Shown here one piece after another: positions 5,924 through 56,538 of a DNA stretch of 64,000 nucleotides. Source of the stretch: Desulfonatronospira sp. Its GTDB lineage: Bacteria > Desulfobacterota > Desulfovibrionia > Desulfovibrionales > Desulfonatronovibrionaceae. Positions within the stretch are counted from its first letter, which is position 1, and every line of letters begins with the position of its first letter. The notes beneath the pieces were generated by a model. The model was given only the letters and a program-made list of their open reading frames with translations, did no database searches and was not told the DNA's origin. The DNA lies in the NCBI RefSeq assembly GCF_003553695.1, contig NZ_PWFB01000012.1, one strand, 5' to 3'. The translations under genes and the position numbers were made by a program.

Positions 5924-6466
5924 TCATTTCTTTTCCTGCTTTTCCAGGGCCTCTTGAACCAGATCCGCCATTTCCCGGGCATTAAGCTCATCTCCTCTTT
6001 CCTGTCTGGCCAGGATGAGGTTTATCTCTCTTTGCACCATGGGCTTGCGGATATCATAATATAGTTTCCAGTTTTCCAGAGCTCCCTGGTCATCCCCCAG
6101 CCTGGCGCAGGCCAGGCCGGTATAAAGCAGGGCAAAATTGTCCCTGGGCCTGAATCCCAGCAGCTTTTCCCAGGACTGCCTGGCCCCGGCGTAATCCCCC
6201 TGCATGAAATGGCAGTACCCCAGGTTGGGCATGGCCTCCAGATGCCTGGGTTCTTTCTTGAGCCTTCTTGAATACAGGTGAGCAGCCTTGTCGTACTGTC
6301 CCTCCCTGAGCAGCCTGTCAGCGTAAACCATGTCCGGATCAACTCCGCTGGACTTCTTTTCCAGGGAGTCCCCCCGAACCTTCTGAAACAGGCCCTGGAA
6401 AAGATCCCTTCGGGATATTTTGCGGTCTTTACCGGTCCTGTGATCCTTTATCGATCTTGATGTCAT
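5924..6466 (-). CDS. Tetratricopeptide repeat protein
   Basis: TPR-like units (AMPNLGYCHFMQGDYAGARQSWEKLL; ALLYTGLACARLGDDQGALENW); GGAG RBS. Confidence 0.8.
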   Translation of the reverse strand: MTSRSIKDHRTGKDRKISRRDLFQGLFQKVRGDSLEKKSSGVDPDMVYADRLLREGQYDKAAHLYSRRLKKEPRHLEAMPNLGYCHFMQGDYAGARQSWEKLLGFRPRDNFALLYTGLACARLGDDQGALENWKLYYDIRKPMVQREINLILARQERGDELNAREMADLVQEALEKQEKK

Positions 6467-6801: not shown

Positions 6802-8172
6802 TCAAATACGCTCTTGCGCCCCATTTTCCAGACCGTTTAAGACCGGCTTTCTGCCCATGCAGAAATAAGAAAAGCCCATCTCTTCCAGCATCCGTGGAGG
6901 ATACAGGTTGCGTCCGTCAAATATCACCGGCAACTGCAGCCGGGCTTTTATGCGCTTGAGATCCGGATTTCTGAACTGATTCCATTCCGTGACCACTGCC
7001 AGCGCATGGGCGCCCTGAAGCACTTCATACTGGTCCTCAAGCACCTTTACGCTGGAGTTATCCTGCAGCAACCGGGAGGCGTTTTTACCTGCCTGAGGAT
7101 CATACGCTTTTATTAACATGCCCCTGGATGTAAGTTCTTTTATGATCTCCAGGGACGGGGCCTCGCGCACGTCGTCGGTATTGGCCTTGAAAGCCAGTCC
7201 CCACAGGGCCAGGGTCTTGCCCTCCACTCCCCCCAGCCCTGAAAAGTAATCCTGCACCTTGCGGGCCAGCACCTTCTTCTGAAAACGGTTGACCTCCTCC
7301 ACAGCTTGAAGAAGGCCCGGAGTGTACTGTTTTTCATGGGCGGTATTGATAAGGGCGGAGACGTCCTTGGGGAAGCATGAACCCCCAAAGCCCACCCCGG
7401 GATAAATAAAATGATATCCTATGCGGTGATCAGAGCCGATCCCCCTGCGCACATCGCTTATATCAGCTCCCACCTTTTCGCAGATGTTGGCTATCTCGTT
7501 GATAAAGGAAATCTTGGTGGCCAGCATGCAGTTGGCTGCATACTTGGTCATCTCGGCGCTGCGCACCCCCATGACCATCATCTTGTCCCGGCTGCGGGCA
7601 AAGGGCGAGTACAGCACTTTCAAAAGTTCCGCAGTGCGGATATTGTCTGTGCCCACAATGACCCTGTCCGGTTTCATGAAATCGGAAACCGCGTCCCCTT
7701 CCTTGAGAAACTCCGGGTTGGAGACCACGTCGAATTCCAGCTCCAGGCCCCTTTTGTCCAGTTCGGCCTGGATGAGCTCGCGCACCATATCCGCCGTACC
7801 CACAGGTACCGTGGACTTGTCCACCACGATTTTGTAGTCCTGCATGTTGCGGCCCACATCCCTGGCCACCTGGCGCACAAATCCCAGGTCCGCCCGGCCG
7901 TCTTCTCCGGGAGGGGTGCCTACACAGATGAACACGAACAGGCAGTTGTCCAGGCCTTCACTAATATCAGTGGTAAAATGCAGCCGGCCCTGGTCCCTGT
8001 TTCTGCGCACCAGTTCCTCCAGGCCGGGTTCGAATATATGCACCCGCCCCTGGTTCAGAGTCTCCACCACTTCCGGGTTAGCGTCCACGCAATAAACGTT
8101 GCTGCCCATCTCCGCAAAGCAGGCCGCGCTCACCAGCCCCACATACCCAGTACCCACGATGCAAATATCCAC
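6802..8172 (-). CDS. ugd: UDP-glucose/GDP-mannose 6-dehydrogenase
   Basis: GTGYVG Rossmann motif, FICVGTP, KSTVPVGT, SNPEFLKEG, GFGGSCFPKD, GLAFKANTDD; GTG start. Confidence 0.95.
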   Translation of the reverse strand: MDICIVGTGYVGLVSAACFAEMGSNVYCVDANPEVVETLNQGRVHIFEPGLEELVRRNRDQGRLHFTTDISEGLDNCLFVFICVGTPPGEDGRADLGFVRQVARDVGRNMQDYKIVVDKSTVPVGTADMVRELIQAELDKRGLELEFDVVSNPEFLKEGDAVSDFMKPDRVIVGTDNIRTAELLKVLYSPFARSRDKMMVMGVRSAEMTKYAANCMLATKISFINEIANICEKVGADISDVRRGIGSDHRIGYHFIYPGVGFGGSCFPKDVSALINTAHEKQYTPGLLQAVEEVNRFQKKVLARKVQDYFSGLGGVEGKTLALWGLAFKANTDDVREAPSLEIIKELTSRGMLIKAYDPQAGKNASRLLQDNSSVKVLEDQYEVLQGAHALAVVTEWNQFRNPDLKRIKARLQLPVIFDGRNLYPPRMLEEMGFSYFCMGRKPVLNGLENGAQERI

Positions 8173-8404
8173 CCATCAACTCCTAAAATATATTTTTGCC
8201 CGGAAAACTGTCCACAGTCACTACTGGCAAAGCATCCATATCAGTTTCTTAGTTTTCATCTGGAAACGGTTCTTTTTCCCTTTGGCGGTGTCAATCTGCA
8301 CAATTATTCGTCAACGTATTAAGATACGCCTCCTCATAATTGCTTGATTTCCTTGCCAAAAGAAAAAACTCCTCGTTTCCAGAAAGAAAACCATCAGTTT
8401 TTAG

Positions 8405-8431
8405 CATCCGGAAATAAAGAATTTCCGGATG
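8405..8431. promoter_or_regulatory. Perfect 11-bp inverted repeat, candidate regulator/enhancer site
   Basis: CATCCGGAAAT-aaaga-ATTTCCGGATG in the AT-rich ugd/bioF divergent spacer. Confidence 0.5.
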
Positions 8432-8596
8432 GAAACTTCTTAACTGAAAAACATCCGCCTGTAAAAGGTGTTTTGCCGCATGCCTTCGCTGAGATTATAA
8501 TATTGCGGTCAAAAGTGAACCTTGCCTGTCAGCTCTTTTTCTCCTAAAAAATTGTATAGACCCCTTGCAAGCATGTCTTTTACTTATTTTTCTCCA

Positions 8597-9799: not shown

Positions 9800-10412
9800 C
9801 CCCTACTTCAGCGCAGCCCCATTTTACGATCTGGCAGTCACTCCTTTTCTGCACCGCATAAGAAAAGCAATCTGTATCCAGCTGCAGAAAATGCAGGTGA
9901 AAAAAGTGGTGGATCTGGGCTGCGGTACCGGACGCCAGCTTGAGCTTTTGCACCGGCAAGGCTTCCAGGCCTGCGGGGTTGATTTTTCCGCTGCAATGCT
10001 TAAAAAGGCTGCAGACTATTCTTCCAGCACTGCGCTATTTCAGGCGGACATAACCAGGACGCCTTTTTTGGGCCACAGCTTCGACAGTGCCCTTCTCAGT
10101 CTGGCCCTGCATGAAAATCCATGGACCGTGCAGCAGGCAATAATCGCAGAAGCCCTGCGCATAACCCGCCCAAAAGGTGCCCTTCTCCTGCTGGATCACT
10201 GCCCGGCCTCCAGCAGGGCCGGTAAGATTATACACCTTTTAACCCATATACCCGAGCGGCTGGCAGGGAAGAATCATTACCGAAACTATCTGGAATTCAT
10301 GAAAAAAGGAGGGCTGCAGGGGCTGTTTCTGTCCTGGCCGGACTTGCAGGCTACGGAGATTGAGCATTATTACCTGGGCAACCTGGTACTTCTAAAGGTC
10401 AAAAAATTATGA
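9786..10412 (+). CDS. Class I SAM-dependent methyltransferase
   Basis: VVDLGCGTG, GVDFSAAML, QADITRTPF, SFD; overlaps the bioF stop. Confidence 0.88.
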   Translation: MNRHDPYFSAAPFYDLAVTPFLHRIRKAICIQLQKMQVKKVVDLGCGTGRQLELLHRQGFQACGVDFSAAMLKKAADYSSSTALFQADITRTPFLGHSFDSALLSLALHENPWTVQQAIIAEALRITRPKGALLLLDHCPASSRAGKIIHLLTHIPERLAGKNHYRNYLEFMKKGGLQGLFLSWPDLQATEIEHYYLGNLVLLKVKKL

Positions 10413-10431
10413 AGGAAAAGGTAACCATTCA

Positions 10432-10643
10432 CCAGGGTCCGTGGACTTTACAAACAGGACGTAAAAACTCACTCCAAGGAAGCGTAAATCAAAACCTGTA
10501 CACGAGTTTTTAAGCGAGCATAACTTCTATAACACGCTTCAAATCAGGTTCGGTGTTTTACGGTTTTGATTAATCACGCCAAAGGCGTGACTACGCGTCC
10601 TTTATACAGTTTACGCCCAGTTTGTAAAGCCCCCGGACCCTGG
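10432..10643. mobile_element. 212-bp MITE-like element with 34-bp imperfect terminal inverted repeats
   Basis: CCAGGGTCCGTGGACTTTACAAACAGGACGTAAA (10432-10465) vs reverse complement of 10610-10643, 30/34; no TSD seen; no coding capacity recognised. Confidence 0.7.
10574..10594 (-). repeat. GTAG-type REP-like hairpin
   Basis: Minus strand reads GTAG-TCACGCC-TTT-GGCGTGA. Confidence 0.55.
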
Positions 10644-10732
10644 ATATCAGTGGAACGCTTAGATTGACCAATTTTATCAGATGGTGGATAGTTACAACAA
10701 ATAAACCAAACCTAAACACAAAGGAGTAAGCC

Positions 10733-11251
10733 ATGCTGACCCCGAAAATGCAGGAAGCCCTGAACCAGCAGGTAAACGCGGAGATGTATTCCGCATATAT
10801 GTATCTTTCCATGTCCGGCTGGTTTGAGGACAGAAGCCTGGCCGGATGCGCCAGGTGGATGCGTATGCAGGCCCAGGAGGAACTGATGCATGCCATGAAG
10901 ATTTACGACTTTATTCATGAACGCGGAGGCCAGGCGCAGCTGACAGCCATTGAAGAACCTCCCCGGAACTGGAGTTCTGCCCTGGATGTATTTGAAAACG
11001 TGCTCTCCCATGAAAAAAAGGTCACCAGCCTGATAAACGACCTGGTGGATCTGGCCATTCAGGAAAAAGACCATGCCTCCAATATCTTTTTGCAGTGGTT
11101 TGTAACGGAACAGGTGGAGGAAGAGGCCAGTGCCGATGCGGTCCTGCAGAAGATCAAGCTGACAGCTGACGCTCCCGGCGGTCTTTTTGCCATTGATCAG
11201 GAACTGAGTCAGAGAACCATGGCCTGCCCCTGCGGTCAGGGCCAGATATAA
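10733..11251 (+). CDS. ftn: Non-heme ferritin
   Basis: LNQQVNAEMYSAYMYLSM, QAQEELMHAMK, HEKKVT, FLQWFVTEQVEEE ferroxidase ligands; AAGGAG RBS. Confidence 0.95.
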   Translation: MLTPKMQEALNQQVNAEMYSAYMYLSMSGWFEDRSLAGCARWMRMQAQEELMHAMKIYDFIHERGGQAQLTAIEEPPRNWSSALDVFENVLSHEKKVTSLINDLVDLAIQEKDHASNIFLQWFVTEQVEEEASADAVLQKIKLTADAPGGLFAIDQELSQRTMACPCGQGQI

Positions 11252-24925: not shown

Positions 24926-27430
24926 ATGCAGGAACGCAGGTACATTCCGGAGGAGATAGAAAAAAAGTGGCAGCAGTTCTGGGAGGAAGAGAAAACCTTC
25001 CAGGTCACCCATGAAGAACCTGACAGGCCCAAATACTACGTCCTGGAAATGTTTCCCTACCCCTCCGGGCGTATCCACATGGGCCATGTGCGCAACTATT
25101 CCATCGGGGATGTGGTGTCCAGGATGAAGATGATGCAGGGATACAACGTCCTGCATCCCATGGGCTGGGACGCCTTTGGCATGCCCGCTGAAAACGCGGC
25201 CATAAAGAACAACACCCATCCCGCCCACTGGACCTACCAGAACATCGACTACATGCGCGATGAACTCAAAAGGCTCGGCTACTCCTACGACTGGAGCAGG
25301 GAGCTGGCCACCTGCCATCCTGAATATTACCAGTGGGAGCAGCTGTTTTTTTTAAAGTTTTTCGAGAAGGGCCTGGCATACCGCAAGAAGGCCCCGGTCA
25401 ACTGGTGCCCCACCTGTGTCACTGTCCTGGCCAACGAGCAGGTGGAGGCCGGACAGTGCTGGCGCTGCGACTCCATGGTGGAAAAACGCGAACTCTCCCA
25501 GTGGTTTTTGCGCATAACCGATTATGCCGAAGAACTGCTTAAAGATCTGGACAAGCTTTCAGGCGGGTGGCCGGAACGGGTCATCAGCATGCAGAAGAAC
25601 TGGATCGGCAAAAGCACCGGCATGGAGATAGACTTTCCAGTCCAGGGACTGAAGGAAAAGATCACCGTCTTCACCACCCGGCACGACACTCTGTTCGGGG
25701 CCACCTTCATGAGCCTGGCCCCGGAGCATGAGATGGTCCCCCGACTCATCCGGGACAACCCCGAACAGGAAAAAATCCGCGAATTCATTGCCAGGACCAC
25801 TTCCCAGGAACACCAAGAACGTACAGCCGAGGACACGGAAAAAGAAGGCATATTTACCGGTAGTTACTGCATCAACCCGGCCACCGGGGAAAAAATGCCC
25901 ATTTTTCTGGCCAACTTTGTCCTGGCCGAGTACGGCACCGGTGCGGTCATGGCCGTGCCTGCCCATGACCAGAGAGATCTGGAATTTGCGCGCAAATACA
26001 ACCTGCCGGTGCGGGTGGTGGTCAAACCCCTGGGGATGGACGAACCTTTGCCTGATGAGCTGGACACCGCTTTTGTTGATCCTGGGCTGGCGGTCAACTC
26101 CGGGCAGTTCAACAACAAGCCCACCTCGCAGGTGCAGGAAGAGATTGCCGATTATCTGGAGGGTCTGCAGGCCGGACTAAGGGCTGTAAACTACCGCCTG
26201 CGGGACTGGAACATCTCCAGGCAGCGCTTCTGGGGGGCTCCTATTCCGGTTATTTATTGCCAGACATGCGGCATAGTCCCAGTACCGCCCGGCGACCTTC
26301 CTGTTGTTCTGCCCCAGGAGGCTGAGATGCCCAGGGACGGACGCTCTCCATTGCCGGACCTGGAAAGCTTTGTCCAGGTGGACTGTCCGGAATGCGGCCA
26401 AAAGGCCAGGCGGGAAACAGACACCATGGATACTTTTGTTGAATCCTCCTGGTATTTCGCCAGGTTCACCGCACCGCGCAAAAACGATGACGCCTTTGAT
26501 CCGGAGGCCATAAAATACTGGCTGCCTGTGGACCAGTACATAGGCGGGATTGAACACGCCATTTTGCATCTTCTTTACGCCCGCTTCTTTGTCAAGGCCC
26601 TGCGCGATACAGGATACTGGGACCTGGACGAGCCCTTTGCCCATCTTCTGACCCAGGGCATGGTCCTCAAAGACGGGGCCAAAATGTCCAAGTCCAAGGG
26701 CAACGTGGTGGACCCGGATGAAATGATCCAGCGCTTCGGGGCCGATACAGTCCGGCTTTACTGCCTGTTCGCCTCTCCCCCGGAAAAGGATCTGGAGTGG
26801 AGCGATTCAGCCATTGAAGGCTCCTACAGATTTTTAAACCGCCTCTGGAGGCTGGTGCACGAACTATCCGGGGTCATCTCCCCTGTTGGACCCTGCATGG
26901 CCATGGAAGGGACAAAGCTTACCCCGGAAGAAAATGAGCTGCGGACTGCCGAGCACGAGGCCATGCGCCGCGCCACGCGGGACATGCTGGACAGGTTTCA
27001 GTTCAACACGGCCATAGCCGCCTGTATGGAACTTTTAAACACCATCGGCCAGCGCCGGCAGTCCCTCAGAGAAAGCCCCAACGGGCCGCAGGTGCTCTCA
27101 TCGGCCCTGTCAACGGTTCTGACTGTGCTGGCCCCCATCACTCCGCATATCTGCGAGGAACTGTGGTCGCACATGGGATACAGGCAAAGCCTGGCCTGGA
27201 GCAGATGGCCGGAGTATGACTCCAGGGCCCTGGTGCGCCAAGAGGTCACCGTGGTCATCCAGGTCAACGGAAAGCTGCGCTCCAGCATGAATGTCCCCGT
27301 GGACATGGACCAGGAAGAGCTCAAATCCCTTTGCCTGGAGGATGAAAAAGTCAAGAAACATATCCAGGACAAAAACGTGGTCAAGGTGATAATTGTGCCT
27401 CAAAAACTGGTAAACATAGTGGTGCGTTGA
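24926..27430 (+). CDS. leuS: Leucine--tRNA ligase
   Basis: [33 protein letters not shown]; 834 aa. Confidence 0.98.
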
Positions 27431-27432
27431 AT

Positions 27433-27954
27433 ATGCGAATTGCAGTGCTGGTTCTTTGCCTGGCCCTTTGCGCCGGATGCGGCTACAACTTCGCCGGCAT
27501 GACTCCGGTGGATATGCCCGAGGGCGTAAGCCGGCTGCATCTGGACCGGGTGAACAATCCCACCCAGGAGGCCTGGCTGGAGCCTTTCGTGCGTTCCAAC
27601 TTCCGCGACGAGTTCTCCAGGCGGGCGGATATATCCTGGGTGGACCGGGAGCAGTCCCAGGCCTACATAGAGATAGACATCAAAAACTACCGGGTTTCCG
27701 ACGATCTCACCGGGGCCGGGGACAGGGCGGTGCGCTCCGATGTAAGGCTGGACCTGGAAGTAAAAATTTATCACTCCCAGGATGACCAGCTGTTGTGGTC
27801 TTCGGGCAGCGTCCGCGGCAGCAGCTCTTATTACCTGGCCCAGGATCAGGCCCCGGTGCCGGGGGAGAGCACCCCGGGAGAAAGGCAGGCTGCCCAGGAA
27901 GCAGTTGAAGAAGCCCTGCGCCTGGCCACGGACCGGCTGGGCACAGAATTTTAA
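27433..27954 (+). CDS. lptE: LPS assembly lipoprotein LptE
   Basis: Lipobox ALCAG-C then GY; position between leuS and holA. Confidence 0.8.
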   Translation: MRIAVLVLCLALCAGCGYNFAGMTPVDMPEGVSRLHLDRVNNPTQEAWLEPFVRSNFRDEFSRRADISWVDREQSQAYIEIDIKNYRVSDDLTGAGDRAVRSDVRLDLEVKIYHSQDDQLLWSSGSVRGSSSYYLAQDQAPVPGESTPGERQAAQEAVEEALRLATDRLGTEF

Positions 27955-27969
27955 GGGCCGGGTTGTACC

Positions 27970-28941
27970 ATGTCCAGACCCGGCTTTTACTTCTGTTTCT
28001 GCCCGGATTCGGGCCTTCTCAAAAGACAGATTCATAAGATCCTTGAACCATATGATCCCGATTCCTGGGAACTAAACACCCTGTGGAGCGATGATGAGGA
28101 CCTGGAACAGAAGTTGTGGAAATCCCTGAACATGGCCAACATGATGGGACCTTCCAGGGTGGTTGTTATCCGCAACTGCCAGGTCTTCAAAGAAGCCCAG
28201 TGGAAATCCCTGGCTCCGGCCCTCAAGGGATTCAAGTCCGGCATATGGCCTTTTATCTGCCTTGAAGGCCCCTGGGAGAAAGGCAAGCCCAAGATCCCCG
28301 CCTTCCTGGAAAAGCAGAAATTTTTCAGGGTCGCCCGGGAAAAGGGCTGGCTCTGGCATTTTCCCGGCATCACCAGGCAGAACCTGCCCAGGTACCTGGA
28401 CAAAAGAGCCCGGGAAACCGGCCTTGTATTCGATCCCGGTGTACAGGAAAAACTGGTGGATATCCTGCCCCTGCACAGTCTGGGGGTGGACCGGGAACTG
28501 GAGAAACTGCGTCTTCTGGCTCTGGACCAGAACAGGGTGACCCTGGAACACCTGGACATAGTCGAGCCCAGGGCTGATCTGGACATCTTCGCCCAGATGC
28601 AGAGTATCCAGCAGGGTAAAAACCTTGCCCGGGTATGGCAGAAATTCTTCAGGGATCAGCAATCAGGCCTGGACGGCCTCTTTCAGTTTCTAGGGCTTTT
28701 GTTGCACGAAGCCCGCATTATGTGGCATCTGGCTGCCGGGGAATAGGACAAGGTTTACCTGCATCCCGGGACAAAAAAACAAAAAATCCAGCTGGCCAGG
28801 CAGCTGGGCCCCCGGAACATCGCCCAAATCTGGGACATGATCCTTGAGGCCGAGGCCGGAGTAAAGTCAGGAACCGTCCTGCAGGACCAGGCCCTGGAAA
28901 AGCTGACTGCAGATCTTTACCGCATGTTCAGGCAAAAGTGA
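27970..28941 (+). CDS. holA: DNA polymerase III delta subunit, interrupted by an in-frame TAG at 28744-28746
   Basis: Position leuS-lptE-holA; frame after TAG reads DKVYLHPGTKKQKIQLARQLG..ILEAEAGVKSG..ALEKLTADLYRMFRQK* to TGA 28939-28941, giving 323 codons in total. Confidence 0.8.
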
Positions 28942-28969
28942 GCATTTCCTTGGCAAGTGAGTTTCCATT

Positions 28970-29650
28970 ATGGATTTCCGAAAACCGCACTATACAGGTC
29001 ATCGCCAGAGACTGAAGCAGCGTCTCTACAAGGACCCTGCCAGCCTGCAGGACTATGAAATACTGGAACTGGTCCTGGGGTACGCCCTGCCCAGAAAGGA
29101 CACCAAGCCCCTGGCCAAGGCCCTTCTTAACCGCTACCCCACCTTCAAGGACCTCCTGGCTGCAAGGCCCGGCGACCTTCAGGCTATTGACGGCATCGGT
29201 CCGGGTATTATTACATTTCTTAAGCTCTGGGGTGAATTCTGGGCCAGGACGGACAGGTCCGGACTTAGCAGCAGGAGCACCCTGGACTCGCCGGAAAAAG
29301 TCGTCCGTCTTGCCAGATCCAGGCTCCAGTTCAAGCCCGTAGAAGAATTCTGGGCCATCATGGTGGACAACAAAAACCGGCTGCTTGACTTAGAAAAAAT
29401 GAGCCGGGGAACAGTGGATCAGGCCCCGGTCTTCCCCAGGGAGATCCTGACGGTTGCCCTGGAAAAAAGAGCCAGCGGCGTGATTCTATTGCACAACCAT
29501 CCCGGCGGCGACCCGTATCCCTCTTTTCAGGACCGGGAACTGACCAGGAAAATCAAGGAAGTATCAGCGGCCCTGGGAGTAAGGCTTCTGGACCATGTGA
29601 TTATATCCGAAGACAGTTTTTTCAGTTTTCAGGAACATGGATATTTGTAA
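28970..29650 (+). CDS. radC: RadC/JAB domain protein
   Basis: GHRQRLK, YEILELVL, EEFW, VFPREI, HNHPGGDPYPSFQD, LLDHVII. Confidence 0.93.
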   Translation: MDFRKPHYTGHRQRLKQRLYKDPASLQDYEILELVLGYALPRKDTKPLAKALLNRYPTFKDLLAARPGDLQAIDGIGPGIITFLKLWGEFWARTDRSGLSSRSTLDSPEKVVRLARSRLQFKPVEEFWAIMVDNKNRLLDLEKMSRGTVDQAPVFPREILTVALEKRASGVILLHNHPGGDPYPSFQDRELTRKIKEVSAALGVRLLDHVIISEDSFFSFQEHGYL

Positions 29651-30154: not shown

Positions 30155-30252
30155 TGAACATCAGGCCCTGCAGAGTTCCTGCGGGGCCTGATGACTGACT
30201 TTTGCGTCCAGAAGCCGGACATCCGGCTAAATTTTTCAGGAGAAAACTTGCC

Positions 30253-32670
30253 ATGAGCGATGAAAAGATATTTTTTGCCGAACCCGGGGAGATAGTAAAC
30301 CCCGTGGAAGACCCTCCAAAGTCGGAGAGCTCGGGCCAGGAGGCGGAGCTGGAGATACCCTCCAGCCTGCCGCTTCTTCCGGTGCGAGATATTGTGGTAT
30401 TCAATTACATGATCCTTCCCCTTTTCGTGGGGCGGGACAAAAGCATCCAGGCCATTGACCACGCCCTGAACAATAACCGCTACCTGCTTATCTGCACCCA
30501 GAAGGATGAACAGGTGGAAAATCCCGGTCCTGACGACCTTTACCAGACCGGCACCGTGGTCATGATCATGCGCATGCTGAAAATGCCCGACGGCCGCCTC
30601 AAGGTTCTGGTCCAGGGCATCAACAAGGCCAGGATACGCAGGTTCGTCCAGACTGATCCCATGGACATGGTGGAAATAGACGTGATCAAGGACAAGGAAT
30701 TTACCGATCCCACTTCCGAATCCGAAGCCCTGTTACGGGCCGCCCGGGAGCAGAGCGAAAAGCTCCTGGGACTTAGAGGGGTGGATGCTTCCGAGATCAT
30801 GGCCGTTTTAAACAGTGTGGACGACCCCGGCCGTCTGGCGGATCTGGTGGCCTCCAACCTGAGGATGAAGCCTGCTGATGCTCAGCAGATCCTGGAGTGC
30901 AGCGACCCGTTGCAACGCCTGAAAATGGTCAACGAGCAGCTCGTGCGCGAGGTGGAGGTGGCCTCGATGCAGGCCAAGATCCAGAACATGGCCAAGGAGG
31001 GCATGGACAAGGCCCAGCGCGAATACTTCCTGCGGGAGCAGCTAAAAGCCATCCGCAAGGAACTGGGCGATGTCACCGAAAGCGGGGACGACATGGAGCA
31101 GCTGCGGGAGTCCCTGAAAAAGGCCAGACTTCCGGCCAAGGTGATGAAAGAGGCTGAAAAGCAGCTCCAGAGGCTGGAAAACATGCACCCCGATTCAGCC
31201 GAATCCACCGTGGCCAGGACATACCTGGAATGGCTGGTGGAAATCCCCTGGAAAAAGAAGACCAAGGACCGCCTGGATATAAAAGAGGCCCAGAAGATAT
31301 TAAACGAGGACCACTATGACCTGGAAAAGGTCAAGGAAAGGATCCTGGAGTACTTGAGCGTACGCAAACTAAACCCCAGAATGAAAGGTCCCATCCTCTG
31401 CTTTGTGGGCCCCCCCGGTGTGGGCAAGACTTCCCTGGGCCAGTCCATCGCCAGGTCCCTGAACCGCAAGTTCGTGCGCATGTCCCTGGGCGGAATGCGC
31501 GACGAGGCTGAAATTCGCGGCCACCGCAGGACCTACATCGGGTCCATGCCCGGGCGCATCATCCAGAGCATGAAGGAGGCCGGGTCCGTCAACCCGGTCT
31601 TTATGCTGGATGAAATAGAAAAGGTGGGTGCCGACTTCAGAGGGGACCCCTCATCGGCCCTGCTGGAGGTCCTGGACCCGGAGCAGAACCATTCCTTCAC
31701 CGACCACTACCTGAATGTCCCTTATGACCTGTCCAAGGTCATGTTCATCTGCACCTCCAATATCCTGGACACCATCCCCTCGGCCCTGCTGGACCGCATG
31801 GAGGTTATCCGCATTCCGGGCTATACCGAGCAGGAAAAGGTGCATATCGCCCGTAAATACCTCCTGCCCAGGCAGATCAAGGAAAGCGGGCTCAAGGAAA
31901 AGGACGTATCCTTGAGCGATGGGGTCATAAAAGAGATTATCCGCAACTATACCCGGGAGGCGGGGCTCAGGAACCTGGAGCGCGAAATAGGGGCAGTATG
32001 CCGCAAAATCGCCAGGCAGGTGGCTGAAGGCAAAAAAGGCCCCTTTCGCATCACCAGGAAAAAGGTGGACAAACTTCTGGGTGTGCCCAAATACATACTT
32101 GAGGACCGGGAAAAGGAACTGCCTGCAGGTGTGGCCATAGGACTGGCCTGGACCGCTTACGGCGGGGAGATCCTGCACGTGGAGGTAAGCCTCATGCCGG
32201 GCAAGGGCAAACTCATACTCACGGGACAGATGGGCGAGGTCATGAAGGAAAGCGCCCAGGCGGCTCTAAGCTATGCCCGCAGCCGGGCCAAAACACTCGG
32301 TCTGGACGAAGACCTCCTGGACAAACGCGACATCCACATCCATGTGCCGGCCGGGGCCACCCCCAAGGACGGTCCTTCAGCCGGGCTGACCATGGTTTCC
32401 GCGCTTGTTTCGGCCCTGCTGGACAGGCCTTTGCCCAGGGATATCGGCATGACCGGAGAGATCACTCTTCGCGGCCGGGTGCTGCCTGTGGGAGGCATAA
32501 AGGAGAAAATCCTGGCTGCAGTGGCCTCCGGAGTCAAGACGGTGATCATTCCGGACTCCAACAAGCGCGATTTCAATGAAATCCCGCCGGAGCTCAGGAA
32601 AAATATCCAGGTCAAAACCGTGGAAAATATGGACCAGATCTGGCCCATCCTGGAAATAGCCAGGGATTAG
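30253..32670 (+). CDS. lon: ATP-dependent protease La
   Basis: LPLLPVRD, GPPGVGKTS, LDEIEK, PKDGPSAG (Ser), GGIKEK (Lys); start moved to ATG 30253 behind GGAG. Confidence 0.97.
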   Translation: MSDEKIFFAEPGEIVNPVEDPPKSESSGQEAELEIPSSLPLLPVRDIVVFNYMILPLFVGRDKSIQAIDHALNNNRYLLICTQKDEQVENPGPDDLYQTGTVVMIMRMLKMPDGRLKVLVQGINKARIRRFVQTDPMDMVEIDVIKDKEFTDPTSESEALLRAAREQSEKLLGLRGVDASEIMAVLNSVDDPGRLADLVASNLRMKPADAQQILECSDPLQRLKMVNEQLVREVEVASMQAKIQNMAKEGMDKAQREYFLREQLKAIRKELGDVTESGDDMEQLRESLKKARLPAKVMKEAEKQLQRLENMHPDSAESTVARTYLEWLVEIPWKKKTKDRLDIKEAQKILNEDHYDLEKVKERILEYLSVRKLNPRMKGPILCFVGPPGVGKTSLGQSIARSLNRKFVRMSLGGMRDEAEIRGHRRTYIGSMPGRIIQSMKEAGSVNPVFMLDEIEKVGADFRGDPSSALLEVLDPEQNHSFTDHYLNVPYDLSKVMFICTSNILDTIPSALLDRMEVIRIPGYTEQEKVHIARKYLLPRQIKESGLKEKDVSLSDGVIKEIIRNYTREAGLRNLEREIGAVCRKIARQVAEGKKGPFRITRKKVDKLLGVPKYILEDREKELPAGVAIGLAWTAYGGEILHVEVSLMPGKGKLILTGQMGEVMKESAQAALSYARSRAKTLGLDEDLLDKRDIHIHVPAGATPKDGPSAGLTMVSALVSALLDRPLPRDIGMTGEITLRGRVLPVGGIKEKILAAVASGVKTVIIPDSNKRDFNEIPPELRKNIQVKTVENMDQIWPILEIARD

Positions 32671-33958: not shown

Positions 33959-34013
33959 ATTCGTACCTCTTAATAAGTTTCCATCCGTAAATTCCTTATT
34001 CCCGGATGAAAAC

Positions 34014-55263: not shown

Positions 55264-56538
55264 CTAACCTTGCCTTGCGGTTACCGAGTTGCCGGCCACC
55301 CAGCCGGTGGAAAAAGCCGCCTGGAGGTTGAAGCCGCCAGTGCCAGCGTCAACGTCTAAAACCTCGCCTGCAAAGTAGAGGCCCTGGACTTTTCTGGACT
55401 GCATGGTCCTGGGATCCACTTCTGAAAGCTTTATTCCTCCGGAAGTGATTATGGCCTCATTGAAAGACCGGTACCCGGTGATGTCCATACAGAGCTCCTT
55501 ACACCACATACGCAGAGCCTTCTGTTCACTGGCGGAAAGATCACTGCCCGGTTTGTCCGGATCAATATCGGAATTCTTTAGAAAAACGGGGATCATTTTT
55601 ATGGGCAGAAATTCCTTGAGCAGATTGGATATCTTTTTTCTGCCCCGGGCATGCATCCGGCTGGATATCCGGGATTTCAAGGCGGTGTGACTCACTGCAG
55701 GTTTCAGGTCAATGACCAGCTTGACTTCCAGATTCCGGCTCAAGGCCCGGACCACATCTTTGCTCAGGGAAAGGACAATGGGGCCGGATACCCCGAAATG
55801 GGTAAAAAGCATTTCCCCGAAATCTTCCACCTGCTTTTTTCCCTGGACATAGATCCCGGCCCGCACGTTTCTAAGGCTTAAGCCCTGCATCATCGGGGCG
55901 GTGTCCCCTTTTGTCTCCAGGGGGACCAGACCTGGATAGACCGGGACAATTTCATGCCCTAGAGCCCTGGCCAGAGCGTAGCCGTCCCCAGTGGACCCGG
56001 TAGCCGGGTAAGACGCTCCGCCTGTGGCAATGACGATATTCTCGCCTCGAAAAAACTCTTCTGTTGTACCATGCTTGTCCGTCACCCCCCCGCGGACCCG
56101 GCCCTTTTCTGCAACAATCTGTCTTACTGCCTTAGCAGTCTTTATTTTTACCCCGGCCTCTTTCACCCAGCCAACCAGGGCTCGTACCACGTCAGAAGCC
56201 TGCTGGGTGCGTGGAAACACTCTGCCCCCTCTTTCTTCCTCGGTCTCAAGTCCCAGCGAGTTGAAAAAAGAAACCAGATCCCGGCTGGAGAAACGGCCCA
56301 GGGCAAAACGCATAAATTTTGCCCCGTGGCCAAAGGTACGCAGGAAATCATCATTTGCAGCGGTATTGGTAAGATTGCAGCGCCCCTTGCCGGTAATGCC
56401 CAGTTTCCTGGCCGGCAGGTGCTTTTTTTCCAGAAGAATCACCTGCAGCCCTCTCGTCGCCGCCTGCCCGGCGGCCATAAGACCGGCAGGCCCCCCGCCC
56501 ACTACGATTACTTCCTGGCGAGAGTCTGCTTGCGCCAT
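55264..56538 (-). CDS. HI0933/BaiN family NAD(P)/FAD-dependent oxidoreductase
   Basis: GGGPAG, GKGRCNLTN, GGRVFP, ATGGASYP.TGSTGDGY, LFTHFGVSGP, GGFNLQAAFSTG. Confidence 0.93.
   Translation of the reverse strand: MAQADSRQEVIVVGGGPAGLMAAGQAATRGLQVILLEKKHLPARKLGITGKGRCNLTNTAANDDFLRTFGHGAKFMRFALGRFSSRDLVSFFNSLGLETEEERGGRVFPRTQQASDVVRALVGWVKEAGVKIKTAKAVRQIVAEKGRVRGGVTDKHGTTEEFFRGENIVIATGGASYPATGSTGDGYALARALGHEIVPVYPGLVPLETKGDTAPMMQGLSLRNVRAGIYVQGKKQVEDFGEMLFTHFGVSGPIVLSLSKDVVRALSRNLEVKLVIDLKPAVSHTALKSRISSRMHARGRKKISNLLKEFLPIKMIPVFLKNSDIDPDKPGSDLSASEQKALRMWCKELCMDITGYRSFNEAIITSGGIKLSEVDPRTMQSRKVQGLYFAGEVLDVDAGTGGFNLQAAFSTGWVAGNSVTARQG

Follow-up and report, generated by a model that had tools for sequence, protein, structure and literature searches.

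The window analysed here, a stretch of 64,000 nucleotides (contig NZ_PWFB01000012.1), originates from a soda-lake Desulfonatronospira, a member of a sulfur-cycling genus. The holA gene of this organism, which encodes the delta subunit of DNA polymerase III, begins with the ATG at 27970, downstream of leuS and lptE (Table 1). Its reading frame is interrupted by a TAG at 28744-28746, which is codon 259, in the context GCC GGG GAA TAG GAC AAG GTT. Beyond the TAG the same frame stays open for 64 sense codons (28747-28938) and ends with a TGA at 28939-28941, from which the ATG of a radC-like gene at 28970 is separated by a gap of 28 nt. The TAG, its coordinates, the length of the open tail and the gap to radC had been described in an earlier inspection of the letters (hereafter the sequence-only reading), and all were exact when the sequence was read again. 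The gene as callable from this sequence corresponds to the public protein P0004, which is 258 aa long and 100% identical to the query at 80% query coverage. No contig was returned when records encoding exactly this product were looked up. The open tail is not a chance reading frame, since it is covered by the alignment to the TIGR01128 profile and matches the C-terminus of intact alleles of the same species in every letter (see below).

Table 1. Features of the holA region and their positions in the window.
Feature	Position	Strand	Remarks
leuS (context)	24926..27430		leuS-lptE-holA order; same in gene calls of L081-L084
lptE (context)	27427..27954	+	directly 5' of holA; Pfam LptE match
full-length holA frame	27970..28941	+	323 codons + TGA; DNA polymerase III delta subunit; interrupted at codon 259 in this assembly
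holA as callable from this sequence (P0004)	27970..28746	+	258 codons + TAG
in-frame TAG, codon 259	28744..28746	+	T private to this assembly; G elsewhere, giving GAG (Glu)
cut-off tail	28747..28941	+	64 sense codons + TGA; last two long helices of delta domain III (model); LEAExGVKSG
radC-like JAB-domain gene (context)	28970..29650	+	Pfam RadC, E = 1.7e-40

The read-through product, with X at the position of the stop, scored 91.5 bits against TIGR01128, the holA equivalog of NCBIfam (cut-off 80), and residues 6-314 were aligned with profile positions 1-314 of 316. The match to the Pfam family DNA_pol3_delta was below threshold (15.1 bits vs 21), so that the identity of the gene rests on TIGR01128, the fold and synteny. 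The AlphaFold model of the intact allele P0057 has a mean pLDDT of 83.6 and displays the clamp-loader fold of three domains, of which the C-terminal one is the helical collar. The top PDB matches of this model in Foldseek were the delta subunit of Bacillus subtilis (YqeN, 3zh9; E = 1.2e-9, TM 0.58) and then the Escherichia coli delta chains 8giy_A, 1jqj_D and 1jr3_D, aligned over the full length. Values of TM against the solved delta structures were 0.51-0.58, with a sequence identity of just 13-15%. The profile of alignment A1 also matched residues 34-338 of 3zh9_B, and phmmer with the single protein gave no match among the PDB sequences. The leuS-lptE-holA neighbourhood is present in the window, and its order is that of E. 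coli. In comparison with YqeN and the E. coli delta (1jqj, 1jr3, 8giy), the likeness thus consists of the equivalog cut-off passed, the full-length alignment of the model and, for E. coli, the gene order; the differences are the low identity, the sub-threshold Pfam score and a frame cut at codon 259 in this assembly. An uninterrupted frame of about 320-345 codons is lacking in the window; the four conspecific assemblies all have one (323 aa), as do almost all of the homologues (two have 302 aa). Among HolA genes this one is ordinary, and the call of holA made in the sequence-only reading is borne out by profile, fold and synteny.

The collar domain keeps delta in the clamp-loader pentamer. In the AlphaFold model, the stop at codon 259 removes helices 266-300 and 305-321, which are the last two of this domain. 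The tail holds six of the 27 invariant columns of alignment A1 (23 sequences), namely K272, A276, A294, E295, K299 and G301, and two of the 11 invariant columns of alignment A2 (45 sequences), namely K299 and G301. The most conserved motif of the family, LEAExGVKSG, is located in the tail as well and is conserved enough to be used as a search pattern. In both E. coli and B. subtilis, holA is an essential gene. With the conserved tail of the collar lost from a subunit that is essential in model bacteria, a viable cell carrying only the 258-aa form is unlikely, in agreement with the earlier expectation that loss of the C-terminus should be serious. The DNA of the tail (28745-28941) shows zero differences from the intact alleles L081-L084; this lack of decay means that the lesion, if there is any, is very recent.

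The 90% cluster of P0004 contains one other member, P0057, which is 323 aa long, has Glu at position 259 and is identical to the read-through product of the window in its other 322 residues. P0057 is encoded by four independent assemblies (L081-L084), three of them NCBI MAG contigs (PXFJ01000012, PUKX01000005 and PWRL01000164) and one a JGI soda-lake sediment metagenome (3300000365). Over 6-21 kb, these assemblies share 99.7-99.93% DNA identity with the window, and all four carry G at 28744. Near-identical sequence was also present in 16 soda-lake, salt-lake or sediment metagenome runs. Logan contigs spanning the site were obtained from eight of these (X1-X7 and X13, dated 2012 to 2025); each of the eight has G, which, as Logan contigs lose rare variants, identifies G as the letter of the population and leaves room for a minority T. 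The word depth at the site in these contigs ranged from 2.6 to more than 500. Over 19.9 kb, the sequences of runs X1, X2 and X4 depart from that of the window in only four positions: two synonymous changes, one exchange of Thr and Ala, and the TAG. A query of 111 bases centred on the site (28690-28800) was represented by eight sampled 31-mers; eight runs hold exactly five of these and none holds more, from which it follows that every indexed public run lacks the three words spanning the T. The nonsense lesion is thus not reproduced in independent samples of the lineage (T in 0 of 8 runs and 0 of 4 assemblies).

Run X9 was considered as a low-coverage source of the window, as its identical contigs end at 28732 and restart at 28943. 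It was ruled out by differences at 25837, 26434 and 26945 and by a tract of 11 differences. In run X6 a second, far more abundant relative was detected (~213x vs 26x), with 19 differences from the window in 202 aligned bases (28549-28750). The last 30 bases before 28750 are shared between this relative and the window, and the relative has G at 28744. The presence of this relative explains the contig breaks near the TAG in X1, X3 and X6.

A search of a collection of 5.8 billion proteins yielded 56 homologues, which are 310-362 aa long except for three: P0052 and P0053 (302 aa each) and P0004, the 258-aa protein of the window itself. The nearest homologues (82-85% identity) read AAGE-E-DKV across the site. 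At the level of DNA, the codon is GAG in L001, L002 and L085, CAG in L003 and L004 and TCA in L011; TAG occurs in none of them. A scan of JGI metagenome contigs with K at the site gave 0 matches, and a repeat with N at the site found a single contig with GAG, which belongs to a sister species with 87-91% identity. A scan of genome contigs by the LEAExGVKSG pattern returned nothing from the species of the window, the best match having 85% amino-acid identity. The comparison with holA of close relatives, which the sequence-only reading had proposed as a check, thus returned a sense codon in every case (GAG, CAG or TCA). That reading had stated that a sense codon in reads or relatives would speak against the more exotic explanations, and this is what the four assemblies and eight runs show, all of them with GAG.

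The TAG is most probably a base-call or consensus artefact of this one assembly, with a probability of roughly 65%, as judged from the comparison with the surrounding population. One erroneous letter at 28744, a T in place of G, would turn GAG (Glu259) into the stop, and it could have arisen in base-calling, from low coverage or during consensus building. The organism would then almost certainly make an ordinary delta of 323 residues, which would occupy its normal position in the clamp loader, with no suppression or recoding involved. A sequencing or consensus error one change away from a sense codon was also the option ranked first in the sequence-only reading, and the GAG in all four assemblies, all eight runs and the closest sister species supports it. 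An artefact is favoured because the T is absent from every other public copy, because the tail is undecayed and conserved and because holA is essential. The anomaly is of a familiar kind, the one-letter internal stop of draft or metagenome-derived assemblies, and represents no new kind of system. It resembles such single-base-error stops in draft genomes and MAGs in being one substitution away from the sense codon of relatives, in being private to one assembly, in having a downstream frame that is intact and identical to functional alleles and in hitting an essential gene; it differs from them in that the error is here deduced from population comparison.

The main alternative, possible but clearly less probable than an artefact, is that the T belongs to a nonsense allele that is genuine but private, either a rare population variant that was picked by the assembler or, if the organism is a cultured isolate, a mutation in the sequenced stock. 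Such an allele would be a recent loss-of-function lesion, kept at low frequency or surviving by leaky termination at UAG, and would be no feature of the species. The distribution of private letters bears on the choice between the two and is counted in favour of an artefact. The window constitutes a slightly distinct haplotype, with 0.07-0.3% of its sites differing in comparison with any one of the other assemblies. Within 17970-38941 (~20 kb), 28744 is the sole letter private to the window; at the other variable sites, among them the shared polymorphic sites 25837, 26945, 27355, 26185, 26239, 26257 and 26434, the letter of the window is common to at least one other assembly or run. In a comparison of ~59 kb with X2, X3, X4 and X6, three positions have a letter that occurs in the window and in none of these runs: 28744, 6228 and 56087. 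At 6228 the window has G vs C, which affects codon 80 of a TPR protein (Pro vs Arg), and at 56087 it has C vs A, which affects codon 151 of an HI0933-like flavoprotein (Gly vs Val). A homopolymer is lengthened in the window at both of these sites (GCG to GGG at 6228, CCACCCC to CCCCCCC at 56087). All three private letters alter a protein (Glu to stop at 28744), and about half of the shared polymorphisms are synonymous. This pattern fits unselected changes, that is errors or very recent mutations, better than natural variation filtered by selection, the numbers being small. The letters at 6228 and 56087 may be errors like that at 28744.

The same data are also compatible with a genuine private allele. 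The slightly distinct haplotype carries two further private non-synonymous letters, and three private letters in ~59 kb (5e-5 per base) are plausible for genuine strain-private mutations. In addition, deleterious changes are over-represented among alleles seen only once in a natural population, G to T is a real mutational class (oxidised guanine), and the undecayed tail of 64 codons fits a very recent event. However, such an allele would lose the last two helices of domain III together with the most conserved motif of the family, in a gene that is essential in model bacteria and has no second copy in the window, and the T was found in none of the four assemblies and none of the eight runs. Furthermore, an essential gene that has acquired a nonsense codon could not go to fixation in a culture that grows, and at normal depth such a change would rarely be followed by an assembler.

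A decoding of UAG in this strain by a suppressor tRNA, by pyrrolysine-type machinery or by context-driven read-through, which would yield a full-length delta, is very unlikely. Its sole support is the frame that stays open and intact past the TAG. In this respect the gene resembles those of bacteria with pylTSBCD, in which an in-frame UAG is followed by an open homologous frame, but here the UAG is unconserved even within the species and the gene is not a methylamine methyltransferase. The weightiest point is that a programmed UAG would be expected in the conspecific genomes, which have GAG; orthologues and conspecifics encode Glu, Gln or Ser, so the site is not conserved as a recoding site would be. 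TAG is also a common stop in the window: of the 65 ORFs in a crude, non-overlapping set (90 aa or longer), 17 end in TAG, 32 in TGA and 16 in TAA. The ORFs that end in TAG include the presumed fabF, glyA and lon (assigned from the Pfam families in L081), as had been pointed out before from the letters, and this use in housekeeping genes does not agree with efficient genome-wide decoding. No tRNA-CUA was found within the window, the only tRNA being tRNA-Pro(CGG), and the Rfam search near holA gave no match. The RNA of 28735-28860 (126 nt around and after the TAG) was folded, as had been proposed for the region downstream of the TAG, and was not unusual against shuffles (z = -0.50). Pyrrolysine is unreported for Desulfonatronospira in the searchable literature; the one paper that mentions both links them solely via an unrelated reference. 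Site-specific read-through such as the insertion of pyrrolysine, one of the options in the sequence-only reading, is thus left without support by the GAG of conspecifics, the common use of TAG as a stop and the lack of a predicted downstream structure. It is less probable still that the T is real and has become fixed in the strain, with survival through a suppressor tRNA or pyrrolysine-like decoding of UAG; if true, a living bacterium would rely on suppression of a stop codon to make an essential subunit of its clamp loader.

The idea that holA is split or functional when truncated, with the 258-aa part acting alone, together with a separate C-terminal piece or under the cover of a paralogue, is equally improbable: domain I of the E. 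coli delta alone can reportedly open the beta clamp in vitro (the 1JQJ work), but the only in-frame start after the TAG is the ATG at 28837, which would give 34 residues and is preceded by no clear Shine-Dalgarno sequence, no split form occurs among the 56 homologues, and no second holA was revealed in the window by tblastn with the intact protein (next best E-value 0.62), so that the paralogue considered earlier found no backing there.

As to annotation, P0004, the 258-aa 'delta subunit' on public record, almost certainly represents an artefactually shortened version of the normal 323-aa HolA seen in P0057. P0004 should be taken as no evidence for recoding, for a dispensable C-terminus of delta or for a pseudogenised replication gene. 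Near-identical metagenome populations can serve to vet single-letter anomalies of this type when the original reads are out of reach.

Several other features of the window were recorded. The region 25465-27355 of leuS holds most of the variable sites among the window, L081-L084 and the runs, and its flanks are nearly invariant. One contig of X9 has 11 differences within 26434-26945 of leuS. This distribution would fit a tract of recombination or a microdiversity hotspot. The start of lon (30202-32670) is uncertain: the longest ORF begins with TTG at 30202 and encodes 822 aa, and the conspecific gene calls of 805 aa correspond to a start at 30253. In four runs (X2, X3, X4 and X6) the word depth of the contigs, with a background of 10-80x, rises to ~14,000x near 7.8-8.45 kb (7801-8450) and to 58-4,254x near 10.4-11.05 kb (10401-11050), and several contigs branch at 8405-8476 and 10542-10595. 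These spikes suggest short sequences that are common to many genomes or multicopy; Rfam gave no family match at either region. A perfect 11-bp inverted repeat is located at 8405-8431, CATCCGGAAAT-AAAGA-ATTTCCGGATG. It occupies the AT-rich spacer between a UDP-glucose dehydrogenase-like gene and the next gene, and a copy with 2 mismatches is found at 33982-34008; none is expected by chance. The repeat may represent a terminator or, alternatively, a small hairpin element that is repeated.
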